Made by a program: the position numbers and the translations under genes
IMG/VR virus record: IMGVR_UViG_3300020036_007076
Location: 5,325 to 69,324 of that record
Reading direction: 5' to 3' (one strand)
DNA: 64,000 bases
Origin: a virus
Lineage: Duplodnaviria; Caudoviricetes
The notes under the pieces: generated by a model
Seen by the model: only the letters and a program-made list of their open reading frames with translations
Told to the model about the DNA's origin: nothing
Databases searched by the model: none
Part shown: positions 3,257-34,592 of the stretch, piece by piece
How positions within the stretch are numbered: position 1 is the stretch's first letter
How the letters are laid out: each line of letters opens with the position of its first letter

Positions 3257-3498
3257 ATATAACATTAATAATTTATATAATTGGAATGATAGTTTCATAT
3301 TATATGATGAGAAAAATAGATAAATCATTTACTTATCTAGATTATACTTGGTTTGATGTATTAAGTTCGATGTTCTCTTCTCTTCTGAGTTGGATTACAG
3401 TATTAGTTATATCACCTTTATATATAAAAAGATGTGTTAAAAATGAATTTATTAAAAAATTATTTTCCAAATTGAAAACACCACCAACATGGCTTTAA
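3253..3498 (+). CDS. small membrane protein
   Basis: two hydrophobic stretches. Confidence 0.55.
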   Translation: MNITLIIYIIGMIVSYYMMRKIDKSFTYLDYTWFDVLSSMFSSLLSWITVLVISPLYIKRCVKNEFIKKLFSKLKTPPTWL

Positions 3499-5106: not shown

Positions 5107-5301
5107 ATGAAAAATATATTAAAAAGATTATTATTTATACTGTTAATTTGGGTACCACTTCTAAATATATTAGTGGCTGGAATATTAGTGGCTCCTTATT
5201 TTATAATAACAGGGAAATTCATATTTGATGCTAAATTATTTAAATTAATAATGAATCTTCATTACAATTTAATTGAACAAAAAAATAAAAATGGAAAATA
5301 A
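5107..5301 (+). CDS. small membrane protein (paralog of 1156..1332)
   Basis: similarity visible by eye. Confidence 0.65.
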   Translation: MKNILKRLLFILLIWVPLLNILVAGILVAPYFIITGKFIFDAKLFKLIMNLHYNLIEQKNKNGK

Positions 5302-26662: not shown

Positions 26663-26727
26663 TATATTTGTATATATGTATTAAGGATGTATAGAGATGA
26701 AAGTATATACGTATTAAAATAATATAT

Positions 26728-27797: not shown

Positions 27798-28202
27798 ATG
27801 AAAATATGTTCGAAGTGTAAAAATGAAAAGGAGGAAAAGGAATTTAATAAAAATTCTAAAAACAAAAAAACTGGTTTATCTTCCTATTGTAAAGAATGTG
27901 TTAGAAATTCTTCCAAAATATATTATATAAATAATATTTCAATATATAAGGAAAATTACCAAAAACATAGAATTTGGTATGATGAATATAAAAGTTCTTT
28001 AAGATGTTCTAGATGTCCTGAAAACCATCCATCATGTTTAGAATTTCATCATTTAGATCCTAATGAAAAGGAAGGTGGAATATCTGAAATGTTGAAGAGG
28101 AGATTAGACAAAGAAATTATTTTAAAAGAAATTGAAAAGTGTATAGTATTATGTTCTAATTGTCATAAAAAAGAACACTATAAACCTTTTATACATAAAT
28201 AG
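27798..28202 (+). CDS. HNH endonuclease with N-terminal Zn finger
   Basis: CSKC..CKEC; CSRC..EFHHLDP..CIVLCSNCH. Confidence 0.85.
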   Translation: MKICSKCKNEKEEKEFNKNSKNKKTGLSSYCKECVRNSSKIYYINNISIYKENYQKHRIWYDEYKSSLRCSRCPENHPSCLEFHHLDPNEKEGGISEMLKRRLDKEIILKEIEKCIVLCSNCHKKEHYKPFIHK

Positions 28203-28274
28203 CGGGGTAGAGAAGTGGTCATCTCGCAAGCCTCATAAGCTTGAGATCGTTGGTTCGAATCCAACTCAGCGCTA
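28201..28274 (+). tRNA. tRNA-Met (CAT), irregular acceptor stem
   Basis: CAAGC CT CAT AA GCTTG; extra base in the 3' acceptor strand; overlaps the HNH stop codon. Confidence 0.7.
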
Positions 28275-28432
28275 CAACAATACCTTATCAGGCCTCTCGA
28301 CTACCAAAAATGAAGCCCAAATGAGTGAGGTCTTTTTATGTGAATCAAGTTGGGTAGAACAAGATATGACTATGGAGCTCTGTTAAAGAGACGTTTTTAA
28401 CATCTCCTAAACTTTTTTAAATTAAATAAAAA

Positions 28433-28603
28433 ATGGCATTACCTATTAAAAGTACTCCAACTTTATATGGAGAAGATGCAAGAAAATTTTTGGAAGCTAT
28501 AGCTAATCCGAAAAAAGCATCTCCAGAAGAAATCGCTAGAATGAAAGCTCATTATGAAGATTTTAAAAAGATAATGGAGAAAAGTAAAGAAAATTTTGAG
28601 TAA
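28433..28603 (+). CDS. small hypothetical protein; not in ORF track
   Basis: MALPIKSTPTLYGEDARKFLEAI...KENFE*. Confidence 0.65.
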   Translation: MALPIKSTPTLYGEDARKFLEAIANPKKASPEEIARMKAHYEDFKKIMEKSKENFE

Positions 28604-28769
28604 ATTAGGAAATTTAAAATTTCCATCATATATTAAAGTATAAGAAAAAATAATAAAAATTGTATTTTTACAAAATTTACAATATGTATAATAAGAATTG
28701 ATATTCCTTATAAACGAATGGATATAGTACAAGGGCCATTCATATCATCTTAACAATTTAAATAATAAA

Positions 28770-28945
28770 ATGAAAACAACTTACATACATAATCAATTTA
28801 GTCCGTGCCTTCAGGCGACGTATCGTTTATCGATTGTCGATAATAAGGGATGGGGTATAAACCATGGTTCGGTATTAGATGTAGTTTAATTAAGATATAA
28901 TTAAATGATTAATCCGAACCAGGTAAAAGAGGTTCGGATTTTTTG
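28770..28945 (+). promoter_or_regulatory. leader peptide (28770-28889) with antiterminator/terminator; probable attenuator of the tRNA operon
   Basis: 39 aa ORF rich in G/C-ending codons; terminator AATCCGAACC/GGTTCGGATT-TTTT; competing CCATGGTTCGG inside the ORF. Confidence 0.65.
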
Positions 28946-28959
28946 TTTTATATACATAC

Positions 28960-29033
28960 GCGTCTTTAGCTCAGTTTGGTAGAGCACTGGTCTCCAAAAC
29001 CATAGGTCGTAGGTTCGATCCCTACAGGGCGTG
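28960..29033 (+). tRNA. tRNA-Trp (CCA)
   Basis: CTGGT CT CCA AA ACCAT. Confidence 0.9.
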
Positions 29034-29038
29034 CGAAA

Positions 29039-29109
29039 GGTGAAGAGTGTGGGTTCGATACCCATCGAGCCGTTAGGTCGGCTTGTAGTTTAAGTGGTAA
29101 AACATCACT
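29039..29109 (+). ncRNA. circularly permuted tRNA-like RNA (YrlA/Y-RNA-like architecture)
   Basis: GGTGA - T-arm GTGGG TTCGATA CCCAT - CGAGCCG ttaggt CGGCTTG - D-arm GTTT AAGTGGTA AAAC - TCACT. Confidence 0.7.
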
Positions 29110-29117
29110 CATTATAA

Positions 29118-29202
29118 GGAAGGTTGGCAGAGAGGCTTATTGCACTAGTCTTGAAAACTAGAGGATGTAAAAGTTCCGTGAGTTCAAATCTCACACCTTC
29201 CT
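29118..29202 (+). tRNA. tRNA-Ser (TGA)
   Basis: CTAGT CT TGA AA ACTAG; long variable arm. Confidence 0.9.
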
Positions 29203-29211
29203 CAATAAATT

Positions 29212-29298
29212 GGAAGTTAGGTAAATATTGGTTTGTTACGATAACCTGCTAAGTTATTCCAGGTTACACTGGTGAGAGTTCGATTCTCTTGACTTCCG
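29212..29298 (+). tRNA. tRNA-Ser (GCT)
   Basis: ATAAC CT GCT AA GTTAT; long variable arm. Confidence 0.88.
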
Positions 29299-29310
29299 CA
29301 TAAAATATAT

Positions 29311-29380
29311 GGGCGCGATGCCGAAGGCAGGCGGAAACTTTTGCAAAGTTTTTATTAGGGTTCGATTCCCTCGTGGTCCA
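29311..29380 (+). tRNA. tRNA-Ala (TGC), irregular
   Basis: AAACT TT TGC AA AGTTT; G3.T70 pair and A73; bulged acceptor stem. Confidence 0.6.
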
Positions 29381-29431
29381 CAAAGGTTTAGTTTAGAGAT
29401 ATCTATTTTCCTTAAAAAATGAATTCCACCA

Positions 29432-29504
29432 CATCATATAGCTCAGCTGGTAGAGCATTTGTCTGATAAGCAAAAGGCCGTTGGTTCAACTCCAATTATG
29501 ATGA
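29432..29504 (+). tRNA. tRNA-Ile (GAT)
   Basis: TTTGT CT GAT AA GCAAA. Confidence 0.88.
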
Positions 29505-29558
29505 CTTAAAAAATTAAAAAATGGAAACAAGTAAGAAAATCGAGGACGATAAGATTAT

Positions 29559-29630
29559 GTCCTCGTGGCGAGAAGGCACGCGCAGTATACTTTTAATATA
29601 CGGGTAGGGGTTCGATTCCCCTCGGGGACA
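29559..29630 (+). tRNA. tRNA-Lys (TTT)
   Basis: GTATA CT TTT AA TATAC. Confidence 0.82.
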
Positions 29631-29640
29631 CAAAATATAA

Positions 29641-29713
29641 GCTTTGGAAGCTCAGAAGGTAGAGCGGCTGACTGTTAATCAGATGGATGTGGGTTCGACT
29701 CCCACACGAAGCG
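29641..29713 (+). tRNA. tRNA-Asn (GTT)
   Basis: GCTGA CT GTT AA TCAGA. Confidence 0.88.
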
Positions 29714-29724
29714 CAAAAAATAAT

Positions 29725-29809
29725 GGGAGTAAGGTGAATATAGGTTTGTCACCACGGTCTGTAAAACCGCAGCTTTACGTAAGGGTAGGTTCGATTCCTA
29801 CTACTCCCA
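29725..29809 (+). tRNA. tRNA-Tyr (GTA)
   Basis: ACGGT CT GTA AA ACCGC; long variable arm. Confidence 0.88.
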
Positions 29810-29814
29810 CTAAT

Positions 29815-29887
29815 GGATCTTTAGCAAAGTTGGTCAATGCGCTTGTCTGAAGAACAAGTTATATCGGTTCGATTCCGATAGGGTCCA
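29815..29887 (+). tRNA. tRNA-Phe (GAA)
   Basis: CTTGT CT GAA GA ACAAG. Confidence 0.88.
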
Positions 29888-29893
29888 CAAAAA

Positions 29894-29969
29894 CGTGTAA
29901 TAGAGGAGTCAGGTTTATCTCGCTTCATTTGGGATGAAGAGCACGCAGGTTCGAATCCTGCTTACACGA
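29894..29969 (+). tRNA. tRNA-Pro (TGG)
   Basis: CTTCA TT TGG GA TGAAG. Confidence 0.9.
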
Positions 29970-29974
29970 CGAAT

Positions 29975-30048
29975 GCCCTTTTAGCTCAGCAGGAAGTAGC
30001 GCTTGTTTTACATACAAGAGGTCGTAAGTTCGATTCTTACAGAGGGTA
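29975..30048 (+). tRNA. tRNA-Val (TAC)
   Basis: CTTGT TT TAC AT ACAAG. Confidence 0.88.
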
Positions 30049-30054
30049 CTATAA

Positions 30055-30128
30055 GCAGGTAACGCATAAATGGTGGTGCATTGGTCTTCCAAACCGAAAT
30101 AGAGCGAGTTCGATCCTCGCTACCTGCT
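30055..30128 (+). tRNA. tRNA-Gly (TCC)
   Basis: TTGGT CT TCC AA ACCGA. Confidence 0.88.
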
Positions 30129-30202
30129 CAAAAGTTAAAATAGGTCATGATGACGAGACGCCAAATCCACGACTCATATGAATACTAATTAACTTTTATT
30201 AC

Positions 30203-30274
30203 GGTCTATTGGTGTAGGGGTAACAGTACTGTCCTGTCACGGCAGTGTCGCGAGTTCGAGTCTCGCATAGACCG
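30203..30274 (+). tRNA. tRNA-Asp (GTC)
   Basis: CTGTC CT GTC AC GGCAG. Confidence 0.9.
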
Positions 30275-30323
30275 CGAGTTGCACCTTTTTGAACCCATAT
30301 AATATTTATAATAAAATATAAGT

Positions 30324-30734
30324 ATGAAAATATGTTCGAAGTGTAAAATAGAAAAAGAATTAGATAAATTCTTTAAAAATAAAATGAATTGTAAAGATGG
30401 ACATTCTGCTTGGTGTAAAAAATGTCAATTAGAACATAAAAAAATTCATTATATTAATAATAAAGATAAATATTCAGTTAGTTCATTTAATAGTAAAAAA
30501 TGGTTTATTGATTTAAAAATTGGATTAAAATGTATAAATTGTGGATTTAATCATCCTGCAGCATTAGATTTTCACCATGTTAATCCTAAAGAAAAACTTT
30601 TCCCTATTAATTATAGTAATTTTGGTAGAAAAAGTAGAGGAGAAATATTAAAAGAAATAGAAAAATGTATAGTTTTATGTTCAAATTGTCATAGAATAGA
30701 ACATTCAATTAAATATAATGAATATATAAAATAA
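30324..30734 (+). CDS. HNH endonuclease, paralog of 27798..28202
   Basis: MKICSKCK start; DFHHVNP..CIVLCSNCH. Confidence 0.85.
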   Translation: MKICSKCKIEKELDKFFKNKMNCKDGHSAWCKKCQLEHKKIHYINNKDKYSVSSFNSKKWFIDLKIGLKCINCGFNHPAALDFHHVNPKEKLFPINYSNFGRKSRGEILKEIEKCIVLCSNCHRIEHSIKYNEYIK

Positions 30735-30808
30735 GCTTCATACGCATGAATGGTGGTGCACCTCACTTGTAATGAGGAATAGATTCGGTTCGATCCCGGA
30801 ATGAAGCT
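30735..30808 (+). tRNA. tRNA-Thr (TGT)
   Basis: CCTCA CT TGT AA TGAGG. Confidence 0.88.
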
Positions 30809-30874
30809 CTGTGTTGCAACTAATCTGAGGGTCCACAGGTCTAGCCTCAGTTAAAATGACAAAAAGGCCGACCA

Positions 30875-30947
30875 GTACCCTTAGCTCAGATGGTAGAGCA
30901 GTTCACTCATAATGAAAAGGTCACAGGTTCAATTCCTGTAGGGTGCA
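30875..30947 (+). tRNA. tRNA-CAT (elongator Met or Ile2)
   Basis: GTTCA CT CAT AA TGAAA. Confidence 0.85.
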
Positions 30948-30952
30948 CATAG

Positions 30953-31025
30953 GGTGAAATGGTTGAGTGGTTTTAAACACTAGTCTGCAAAACTAGGTAG
31001 GTTGGTTCAATTCCAACTTTCACCT
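30953..31025 (+). tRNA. tRNA-Cys (GCA)
   Basis: CTAGT CT GCA AA ACTAG; U73. Confidence 0.88.
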
Positions 31026-31036
31026 CAAAAGTATAC

Positions 31037-31110
31037 TCTCCCCTCGTCTAATTGGCAGGATGCGATGCTTTGAACATTGCGATGGTTTGGTTCGAATCCA
31101 CCGGGGAGAA
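31037..31110 (+). tRNA. tRNA-Gln (TTG)
   Basis: CGATG CT TTG AA CATTG. Confidence 0.85.
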
Positions 31111-31115
31111 CATAT

Positions 31116-31191
31116 GGTGTTAATAGCTCAATTGGTCAGAGCGCTTGTTTGTGAGATAAGAGGTTATGGGTTCGATCCCCATTTAATACCC
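31116..31191 (+). tRNA. tRNA-His (GTG)
   Basis: CTTGT TT GTG AG ATAAG; G-1 and C73. Confidence 0.88.
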
Positions 31192-31196
31192 TTAAT

Positions 31197-31269
31197 ACAC
31201 CGTTAGTTTAACTGGATAGAATGAGAGGCTACGAACTTCTTGGTATAGGTTCAAATCCTATATGGTGTA
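31197..31269 (+). tRNA. tRNA-Arg (ACG)
   Basis: AGAGG CT ACG AA CTTCT. Confidence 0.9.
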
Positions 31270-31281
31270 CGTTTAATTAAT

Positions 31282-31357
31282 GCCCAACTGGCGAAACTGG
31301 TAGTACGCGTTAGTCTTAGAAACTAAATTTTTGTGGGTTCGAATCCCACGTTGGGTA
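31282..31357 (+). tRNA. tRNA-Leu (TAG), short variable arm
   Basis: TTAGT CT TAG AA ACTAA. Confidence 0.85.
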
Positions 31358-31378
31358 CAAATATTTATTATAAAAAAT

Positions 31379-31459
31379 GCTCCCTTGGTGAAACTGGTAG
31401 TACACGATGAGCTTAAGACTCATTGCCTAGGCGTGCGAGTTCGACTCTCGCAGGGAGTA
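31379..31459 (+). tRNA. tRNA-Leu (TAA)
   Basis: ATGAG CT TAA GA CTCAT. Confidence 0.88.
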
Positions 31460-31474
31460 CAAAAAATTAAAATT

Positions 31475-31984
31475 ATGCGGATACATAGAATAAATAAAGA
31501 TTTAACTAAAATATTAGTTCTTAACTCAGACTATTTACCTGTGAATGTAACTACATTCAAAAAAGCATATAAACTAGTATATAAAGGAAAAGCTGAAATT
31601 GTTGAGCAAGATAACTTATATAAAGTAAATGATAAATTTACTAAACCATCAGTTATTCGTTTAATTAAATATGTTAATATCCCATATAGAAAAGTAGTTT
31701 TATCAAGAGAAAATATATTTAAAAGAGATGAACATAAATGTGCTTATTGCCCATCAGTTAAAAATTTAACAGTCGACCATATTATTCCTAAATCTAAAGG
31801 TGGTTTAAATACATGGGAAAATTTAATTACTTGTTGTTTTTCTTGTAATGCTAAAAAAGGAGATAGAACTCCTGAACAAGCAGGAATGAAATTATCATTC
31901 AAACCTAGTAAACCTCACCCTATATATTTTATTTATAAAATACATAAAGATGTAGAAAAATGGCAACCATATTTAATGTTTTAA
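31475..31984 (+). CDS. HNH endonuclease (McrA-like)
   Basis: CAYC..LTVDHIIPKSKGG..TWENLITCCFSCNAKKG; start reassigned to MRIHR. Confidence 0.88.
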   Translation: MRIHRINKDLTKILVLNSDYLPVNVTTFKKAYKLVYKGKAEIVEQDNLYKVNDKFTKPSVIRLIKYVNIPYRKVVLSRENIFKRDEHKCAYCPSVKNLTVDHIIPKSKGGLNTWENLITCCFSCNAKKGDRTPEQAGMKLSFKPSKPHPIYFIYKIHKDVEKWQPYLMF

Positions 31985-32062
31985 GTTAATTAATTTTCTA
32001 ATACTTTATTGGGATTACAAAATCTTTTAACATATATTTATACAAATTAAAAATTAAAAGAT

Positions 32063-32275
32063 ATGAAAAATTTAACCTTTCCAAAGATTTTTACAATTTT
32101 AATGTTTGTAATTTCTGCAATTTTATTGGTAACTAATATATTTGATATTACTAATTTTGGTTACTTAAATATATTTGGTTTATTTTTAACTCCATTTCTT
32201 ACTATGGGAATATTTAATATATTAACTTTGATTTCCCATCCTATAGAAATTATGTTTATTTTACTTTTTGAATAA
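32063..32275 (+). CDS. small membrane protein
   Basis: hydrophobic; own promoter. Confidence 0.6.
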   Translation: MKNLTFPKIFTILMFVISAILLVTNIFDITNFGYLNIFGLFLTPFLTMGIFNILTLISHPIEIMFILLFE

Positions 32276-32289
32276 ATTAATTATTTAAT

Positions 32290-33741: not shown

Positions 33742-34536
33742 ATGAATTTTACTGCAGAACAAATCCAAAGTAATTGGGATTCACTTATTAATTATATAGA
33801 TAATTATATTGAAGAACCCCGTAGAACTAAATTAAAAGATTTCTATTCTAAATATCAGGAAAGAATCATTTTAATGCCAGCATCTCATAAAAAAGAATAC
33901 CACAATGCTTTCCCAGGTGGATATGTAGAACATGTTAATCGTGTTGTTTCAGCAGCCCTTCAACTTAATAGTGTTTGGGTTAATATGGGGGTAGAATTAA
34001 ATTATACCGAAGAAGAATTAGTATTCTCAGCTATAAATCATGATTTAGGAAAAATGGGTAGTGAAGAACATGAAGCATACTTACCTCAAACAGATCAATG
34101 GCGTAAAGAAAAATTAGGTGAAGATTATTTATTCAATACAGAATTAGAATTTATGACTGTTCCTGATCGTAGTCTATATTTACTTCAGACTCATGGAGTT
34201 GAATATACCAAAAATGAAATGTTAGCAATTAAATTACATGATGGTATATATGATGAATCTAATAAACCATATTTATTGGGTTGGCTTCCAGGACAAAAAT
34301 TACGTTGCTCTTTACCATTAATTGTTCATCAAGCAGATTTCTTAGCTTCTAGAATTGAATTTGAAAGAGAATGGTTTCCTAAATTTAAAAATAACTTGGA
34401 TAATGGAAAAACAAATGGTACATTACCTAAGAACACCAACGGAAAAAAAATCCCTATCAAAACAAAAGCATTAGGTGATATGAAAAGTGAAGGATTAAAA
34501 AAAGCATTTAATACTTTCTTTACCGAGGATAATTAA
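33742..34536 (+). CDS. HD-domain phosphohydrolase
   Basis: HNAFPGGYVEHV, NHDLGK, LHDG, HQAD motifs. Confidence 0.85.
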   Translation: MNFTAEQIQSNWDSLINYIDNYIEEPRRTKLKDFYSKYQERIILMPASHKKEYHNAFPGGYVEHVNRVVSAALQLNSVWVNMGVELNYTEEELVFSAINHDLGKMGSEEHEAYLPQTDQWRKEKLGEDYLFNTELEFMTVPDRSLYLLQTHGVEYTKNEMLAIKLHDGIYDESNKPYLLGWLPGQKLRCSLPLIVHQADFLASRIEFEREWFPKFKNNLDNGKTNGTLPKNTNGKKIPIKTKALGDMKSEGLKKAFNTFFTEDN

Positions 34537-34560: not shown

Positions 34561-34592
34561 AAGGTTGTGTTTAATAGCACAACCTTTTTTTA
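34561..34592 (+). terminator. intrinsic terminator
   Basis: AAGGTTGTG tttaatag CACAACCTT followed by T run. Confidence 0.75.

Follow-up and report, generated by a model that had tools for sequence, protein, structure and literature searches.

A 39-codon open reading frame (ORF) and an overlapping pair of alternative RNA structures, lying directly ahead of the main tRNA genes of a tailed phage (Caudoviricetes), probably constitute a working ribosome-mediated (leader-peptide) transcription attenuator. We place the probability of this reading at about 0.7 on sequence evidence, there being no transcript, ribosome or termination data, and it implies that the phage probably transcribes its main tRNA genes only when ribosomes decode slowly, for which no expression data are available either. 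The case is carried by features that can be observed directly, namely the ORF, the mutually overlapping structures, the roster of codons that the ORF contains, the persistence of these in natural variants and the occurrence of analogous, unrelated leaders in other phages.

Phage context and tRNA gene layout

The window, by which we mean the whole 64,000-nt stretch of DNA analysed, is part of a 69-kb IMG/VR virus record (IMGVR_UViG_3300020036_007076) with an estimated completeness of ~43%. It has a GC content of 25-30%, all of its genes are co-directional, and near-identical DNA was found in runs from wastewater and from freshwater. Among cultured phages the nearest relative is the Flavobacterium myophage immuto (160 kb; 46.6% amino-acid identity over a baseplate protein) and a Shine-Dalgarno-like motif is found at only 3 of 52 long phage genes, from which we infer that the host is probably a Flavobacteriia-like member of the Bacteroidota. 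ARAGORN and Rfam together identify 25 tRNA genes and a tmRNA in the window, divided into a small group upstream of the leader (Met, Arg-tct, Glu-ttc, the tmRNA and a further Met) and a main run, in whose gaps Rfam found no additional tRNA at E<=10.

26906, upstream of the leader: tRNA-Arg-tct
26989, upstream of the leader: tRNA-Glu-ttc
28960 to 31460, + strand: main run of 21 tRNA genes (19 amino acids, no Glu; ARAGORN, Rfam)
30324 to 30734: Cys-rich 136-aa ORF interrupting the main run

Several observations concern the array itself. The tmRNA at 27375-27758 matches Rfam RF00023 over its full length (73.7 bits) and was not called by ARAGORN; tmRNAs occupy the equivalent place in relatives L003, L005 and L010. 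The tRNA-Ala(tgc) at 29311-29379 is only 69 nt long, scores 23.1 bits in the Rfam tRNA model against a gathering score of 29, and may be degenerate. Between tRNA-Trp and tRNA-Ser lies a 67-nt stretch without assignment (29041-29107) that weakly matches the tRNA-like part of YrlA (Y RNA-like) at 27.8 bits, where the gathering score is 69. Two paralogous Cys-rich ORFs of ~135 aa (27798-28202 and 30324-30734) both begin MKICSKCK, each adjoin a tRNA gene and look, by eye only, like HNH-type homing endonucleases. Ahead of the first tRNA group (Met, Arg-tct, Glu-ttc), the segment 26663-26727 holds a TAnnTTTG box at 26663 and an 11-codon ORF (26687-26722) containing AGA and GAA; no terminator follows this ORF and its codon match is not significant (~0.08, a rough estimate).

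Leader ORF, codon roster and proposed switch

The leader and its switch occupy a 356-nt spacer ahead of the main tRNA run, comprising the following elements.

28604 to 28769, + strand: AT-rich 5' region of the leader, no promoter identified
28770 to 28889, + strand: leader ORF of 39 codons plus TAA, with an ATG start, open in all three haplotypes
28799 to 28857, + strand: GC-rich hairpin within the ORF (codons 11-30)
28861 to 28878, + strand: antiterminator 5' arm, within codons 31-37, pairing with 28909-28924
28884 to 28906, + strand: apical hairpin of the antiterminator, predicted by folding, holding the stop codon (28887-28889)
28909 to 28924, + strand: antiterminator 3' arm, overlapping the terminator 5' arm (28911-28920) and part of its loop
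28911 to 28944, + strand: intrinsic terminator with a 10-bp stem, a 10-nt loop and a T-run at 28939-28944

A sequence-only reading of this DNA had singled out a 39-aa ORF just before the main tRNA run, and an ATG-initiated ORF is indeed present there. The 20 nt preceding its start codon are A/T-rich and lack a Shine-Dalgarno motif, as do those of 49 of the 52 long phage genes, so that one criterion of an attenuator, a short ORF with a usable start in the 5' leader, is met by an ATG in a gene-like context; translation itself is inferred. No promoter could be recognised in 28604-28769, which contains neither a Bacteroidota-type TTTG-N19-21-TAnnTTTG box nor a copy of the recurrent TTAGGATTACAA motif of the phage and merely weak sigma-70-like matches. 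Six + strand copies of the motif TTAGGATTACAAnTTAAAT, which probably represents a type of phage promoter, are found in the early region (13424, 16057, 18770, 20451, 24128 and 24893; 1.2 expected by chance), and none lies before the leader. A candidate hairpin upstream of the leader (28699-28746) was rejected as not significant (z -0.2).

The leader was said to use many different amino acids, and our count bears this out: 19 of the 20 occur, every one of them within the first 28 residues. The only one missing from the peptide is Glu, and the tRNAs of the main run cover exactly the same 19 amino acids, Glu being missing from both. The correspondence extends to the level of anticodons: all 21 anticodon classes of the run at 28960-31460 are sampled by leader codon 28, including both Ser and both Leu isoacceptors, and the codons GAA, GAG, AGA and AGG, whose cognate tRNAs (Glu-ttc and Arg-tct) lie upstream of the leader, are absent. 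Arginine is instead specified by CGT, matching the Arg-acg of the run, at a usage in phage genes of 4.0 per 1000 for CGT versus 18.8 per 1000 for AGA. Full coverage without GAR or AGR codons has a probability of 5e-6 under phage codon usage and 7e-5 among nucleotide-shuffled ORFs that stay open, and of 20,519 stop-free 39-codon windows in six frames of the 64 kb only 12 reach 21 classes, all of them in the leader frame. The significance of the roster rests on this coverage and exclusion test, which was framed after the peptide had been seen; a simple binomial enrichment is uninformative for this leader (P 0.03), the run reading 91% of codon space. The GC-rich hairpin within the ORF by itself raises codon diversity, all 21 classes being reached with a probability of 0.26% under nucleotide shuffling. 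The tRNA called Met(cat) at 30875 has G1-C72 and C4:G69/C5:G68, which we take to be features of a lysidine-modified tRNA-Ile2, in which case it would, by inference, match the two ATA codons of the leader.

The codons had also been described as atypical for this genome, and a CAI-like index of 0.39, against 0.77 +/- 0.10 for gene windows, bears this out, only 0.09% of gene windows having an index as low. The rare codons cluster inside the in-ORF hairpin (dG -22.4 kcal/mol, z -3.4, 2 of 200 shuffles), which is unchanged among haplotypes save for a bulge/synonymous change at 28850. Rare NNG and NNC codons may sharpen the sensitivity of the leader or may merely build the hairpin, and the data do not separate the two; the function of the hairpin is likewise only inferred, an RNA polymerase pause, a ribosome-slowing element and a timing element being possible on purely speculative grounds.

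The terminator reported at 28911-28944 is significant by folding (dG -13.9 kcal/mol, z -4.0, 0 of 200 shuffles), with arms at 28911-28920 and 28931-28940. It ends 15 nt before tRNA-Trp (28960) and therefore leaves no room for a promoter between the two. A custom scan found only two perfect-stem terminators on the + strand of the 64 kb, of which this is one; the other (34563-34584) directly follows ORF 33742-34536. The earlier proposal that 28862-28872 can pair with the terminator 5' arm proved true and too modest, as the pairing is larger, joining 28861-28878 to 28909-28924 through 16 pairs with two 1-nt bulges and capped by the hairpin at 28884-28906. This antiterminator (dG -22.4 kcal/mol, z -6.5, none of 200 shuffles as good) and the terminator share 28911-28924 and are mutually exclusive. 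None of 2000 shuffles of the upstream segment equals the true pairing with the terminator arm, and among 2,558 genomic 50-mers only the true site pairs this well with it. The last nine codons (31-39) cross the antiterminator 5' arm and the cap, the stop codon lying 9 nt beyond the arm and inside the cap, so that a further criterion of an attenuator, an ORF end overlapping the antiterminator, is met by codons 31-37 forming the arm and by the stop in the cap. No anti-antiterminator (1:2) pairing was found by folding, the hairpin at 28799-28857 being self-contained and excluding 28861-28878. Such a pairing is a trp-type feature that attenuation in general does not require; its absence means that termination would depend wholly on tight coupling of transcription and translation. 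Rfam assigned no family of any kind to 28604-28959 at E<=10, its other matches in the window being tRNAs, the tmRNA and weak, chance-level ones, and a T-box riboswitch, whose hallmarks would be a stem I bearing a specifier loop and a conserved T-box sequence in the bulge of the antiterminator, was rejected on this basis. The possibility that the terminator arms are relics of tRNA T-arms was rejected on inspection, no T-arm pairing being present.

In ribosome-mediated attenuation, as a general principle, stalling leads to read-through and completed translation leads to termination (PMC1183508). On this model the polymerase would transcribe a short ORF whose decoding draws on every one of the 21 tRNA species of the downstream run. 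If all codons were decoded fast, the ribosome would pass codons 31-39 to reach the stop, where it would unwind and occupy the antiterminator 5' arm and cap; the terminator (28911-28940) could then fold and transcription would end 15 nt before tRNA-Trp. If any sampled aminoacyl-tRNA were scarce, the ribosome would be expected to stall within codons 2-28, upstream of the switch, in which case the more stable antiterminator (-22.4 versus -13.9 kcal/mol) would form first and the polymerase would enter the tRNA genes. The predicted default is read-through because the antiterminator is both transcribed first and more stable, and termination would need a ribosome translating to the end in step with the polymerase. 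The predicted outcome is feedback control of the phage tRNA supply or, more broadly, a sensor of decoding capacity. The classical attenuation logic suggested by the sequence-only reading thus fits the geometry, since a ribosome reaching the stop must melt the antiterminator, whose arm and cap codons 31-39 traverse, while the coupling of transcription and translation, the direction of the response and the dependence of read-through on leader translation and tRNA charging remain inferences. A single possible RNA run, X7, showed no depth over 28708-28945, which carries no weight for or against expression, since transcript ends do not show in contigs. It also counts against the model that, behind a ribosome halted at the stop of the window haplotype, ~28861-28871 would be re-exposed, given a footprint size taken from general knowledge.

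The same architecture could also operate without translation, which has not been shown for the leader, if a protein, small RNA, tRNA or metabolite acting on the hairpin at 28799-28857 set the switch and the ORF were incidental. This hairpin is stable and invariant, would account for the rare codons and lies only 3 nt from the antiterminator. However, it overlaps neither arm of the switch, no Rfam family is found on 28604-28959 even at E<=10, and neither the 21/21 roster with its exclusion of GAR and AGR codons nor the matching rosters of unrelated leaders in other phages would be explained, so that we regard an untranslated switch as unlikely.

Contigs from three public runs cover the leader element, and in three near-identical haplotypes the ORF, the roster and the antiterminator pairing are all kept. 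The antiterminator energies are -22.4, -16.2 and -21.4, each stronger than the terminator, which is identical across haplotypes except at loop position 28923. One haplotype, X2, differs by 11 substitutions and 2 indels over 28684-29038, and 8 of these 13 differences fall within 28862-28889. Five of the six antiterminator pairs that it changes are still paired, through a double change at 28862/28923 (C:G to U:A) and the changes C:G to U:G, A:U to G:U (twice) and G:U to A:U, and one G:C pair is lost through a deletion, leaving an antiterminator of -16.2 versus a terminator of -13.9. The deletion also shifts the reading frame, moving the stop to 28876, inside the antiterminator arm, so that three residues take the place of the last eight; residues 1-31 and the complete roster are unaffected. 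This covariation comes from one low-depth contig (depth about 5) and offers modest support only. Haplotype X2 also lacks the upstream 56-aa gene, 28418 being joined to 28603 with 7 other letters, and has 78 other letters in place of 29039-29196. The retention of the leader without the 56-aa gene indicates that the element belongs with the tRNA run, and the junction places the left edge of the retained element near 28603. The 56-aa ORF (28433-28603) appears to be an optional insert, a 62%-identical copy of which lies inside the tRNA array of an unrelated 364-kb phage (L002, 10001-10141).

These variants bear on another account, in which a plain or leaky terminator of the upstream unit (tRNA-Met/Arg/Glu, the tmRNA and small genes) merely lowers expression of the tRNA run and both the ORF and the alternative pairing are due to chance. 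Co-directional genes and the lack of a recognised leader promoter would suit it, as would the 10-nt loop, which from general knowledge suggests moderate strength, but the antiterminator pairing is far beyond chance (0 of 2000 shuffles) and its pairs are kept in X2, the element stays with the tRNA run where the 56-aa gene is absent, and the roster statistics oppose chance, all of which makes this account quite improbable. We give very little credence to a functional small protein, or a terminated transcript of ~180-340 nt acting in trans as a small RNA with tRNA control secondary, even though trans activity is on record in Sinorhizobium for leader peptides as well as for terminated attenuator RNAs (PMC6614838, PMC7298713), because the C-terminus is not conserved (the X2 frameshift), no gene with exactly the product of the leader is on record in the contig collection, and the roster would be left unexplained.

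Beyond the three haplotypes this leader has no identifiable homologue. The exact switch pattern has no match in IMG/VR, BLASTN and nhmmer searches of the leader against 18 related loci returned noise only, and a 20-mer scan of metagenome contigs gave two chance matches in unrelated GC-rich DNA. L003, the closest relative by the downstream 159-aa gene, is without the whole module at 28418-32288, which consists of the 56-aa gene, the leader, the 21-tRNA run and the next ORF; in its place L003 has a tmRNA, then a homologue of 28274-28417 and then ~450 nt of unrelated DNA. No tRNAs are present in the syntenic region of phage immuto. A synteny-based comparison is ruled out by these two absences. 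The tRNA operon and its leader look like accessory, exchangeable cargo.

Codon-matched leaders in other phages

Since the tRNA-Trp gene of the window resembles that of Cellulophaga phages, we examined Cellulophaga phage phi4:1_13. IMG/VR phages were also examined, among them 114 loci retrieved by a tRNA-Trp pattern without further selection. The codon-matched leader ORFs found are as follows.

phi4:1_13 (L020, KT962245), 2430 to 2498: leader 1
phi4:1_13 (L020, KT962245), 3390 to 3473: leader 2
phi4:1_13 (L020, KT962245), 5136 to 5234: leader 3
L002, 3494 to 3619: leader ORF
L132, reverse complement, 15 to 143: leader ORF
L041, 11322 to 11399: leader ORF

Three terminators divide the tRNA array of phi4:1_13, and each stands immediately ahead of a tRNA and behind a short ORF. 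In leader 1, 11 consecutive codons (QRLHLQELEQP) cover all seven anticodons of the Pro-Glu-Gln-His-Leu-Leu-Arg run (P about 2e-6), and 22 of the 26 codons of leader 2 are cognate to Ala-Lys-Ile-Gly-Met-Asp-Thr-Val-Arg-Met (P 4e-4). Leader 3 (NYCTYNNSNWSFSY) is rich in Asn, Tyr, Ser, Trp and Phe and precedes a Tyr-Ser-Asn-Trp-Phe run, with a codon-level P of 0.017. Cross-controls between leaders and runs indicated that the matching is specific, and the leaders encode Arg by CGT or by AGA according to which Arg tRNA the run contains. A Bacteroidota-type promoter box is common to leaders 1 and 2, occurs in a one-mismatch version at leader 3 and is also found before the L002 leader. In L041 and in phi4:1 leaders 1 and 3 the start codon follows the promoter -7 box at a distance of 4 nt, suggesting that these three leader mRNAs are leaderless.

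In L002, the 364-kb IMG/VR phage, a 41-codon leader starting MKTT has 31 of 40 codons cognate to a 13-tRNA run (P 3e-5) and contains an 8-mer complementary to the terminator arm. Among the 114 loci the best terminator-proximal ORFs are also codon-matched, L132 with 15/15 anticodons at P 1.2e-4 and L041 at P 1.3e-4; the values for L002, L132 and L041 (3e-5 to 1.3e-4) stand among 53 ORFs tested. In six analogous leaders we compared the in-ORF partner of the terminator 5' arm with shuffles, and it stood out in L002 (9/1000) and L041 (2/1000), was marginal in phi4:1 leaders 1 (58/1000) and 2 (49/1000), and was no better than shuffles in L132 (104/1000). The analogous leaders share no sequence similarity with that of the window. 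The design is not universal, the tRNA region of phage T5 having no roster-type leaders.

Like the leader of the window, these are short ORFs (often beginning MKT or MKI) followed by a terminator that immediately precedes a tRNA run; their codons match that run, and several contain a partner of the terminator 5' arm within the ORF. They differ in that each covers a subset of 5-17 tRNAs, whereas the single ORF of the window covers a near-complete set, contains a large hairpin of its own and follows a longer 5' region in which no promoter box could be recognised. The general tRNA-shortage sensor that had been inferred from the window alone gains support from the sampling of 21/21 run anticodons without any of the upstream-only codons, and from the matches in independent phages. 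An untranslated switch, a leaky terminator and a trans-acting product each fail on the roster and on its recurrence, and in the absence of expression data none is excluded. For the leader of the window we are inclined, with slightly better than even confidence, towards a wider interpretation: one 39-codon leader would act as a whole-repertoire decoding sensor, with one codon per each of 21 tRNA species ahead of a default-on antiterminator, turning on a near-complete private tRNA set when any species is limiting, and it would be part of a widespread, undescribed class of phage tRNA-operon attenuators. Within this interpretation a tRNA might become limiting through codon-usage mismatch, host shut-off or a tRNA-cleaving defence; there is no evidence here for the link to anticodon nucleases that had been suggested.

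Relation to known attenuators and implications

Enterobacterial attenuators include the multivalent leaders of ilvGMEDA (Ile/Val/Leu) and thr (Thr/Ile) as well as trpL, hisL, leuL and pheL. Like these amino-acid operon leaders, the element described here combines regulatory codons in a short translated leader (predicted in our case) with an intrinsic terminator and with an antiterminator that excludes it and has its 5' arm at the ORF end. Unlike them, it precedes tRNA genes rather than genes for biosynthetic enzymes, carries a one-of-each roster for 21 anticodons (19 amino acids) in place of a run of codons for one to three amino acids, and lacks a Shine-Dalgarno motif, as expected for a Bacteroidota-type host. 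It further departs from the trp type in having no 1:2 anti-antiterminator, and its untranslated default is predicted to be read-through, not superattenuation. B. subtilis vmlR (PMC9226507) and bmrCD (PMC4191407) similarly combine a leader ORF with a terminator, slowed translation turning on genes that relieve the translation problem, but they sense antibiotic-stalled ribosomes and control ABC-F or transporter proteins, and their leaders are not rosters of the regulated products. Sensing of tRNA supply by terminator/antiterminator switching is shared with T-box riboswitches, which however need no translation: their specifier codon and T-box bulge contact a single uncharged tRNA directly, and the genes that they control are synthetase and amino-acid genes; the element of the window is too short for a T-box and samples 21 tRNAs. 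Full-text searches of the literature turned up no account of tRNA genes being controlled by leader-peptide attenuation, whether in phages or in bacteria.

Judged from its sequence features, the leader appears to apply the logic of classical attenuation to tRNA genes. Discussions of phage tRNA arrays usually treat them as constitutive cargo that offsets codon bias or tRNA-targeting defences. A built-in sensor, if true, would mean that phages regulate their tRNA supply by decoding-speed feedback, and would carry classical attenuation beyond amino-acid genes into the control of tRNA genes. The design would give a testable readout of the tRNAs that a phage treats as limiting and a compact natural part reporting shortage of any of 21 tRNAs. 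It also offers an annotation rule whereby the roster of a leader equals the regulated run and so defines transcription units within tRNA arrays. The leader of the window would be the extreme case, sampling a near-complete set and skipping exactly the codons that are served from outside the unit.
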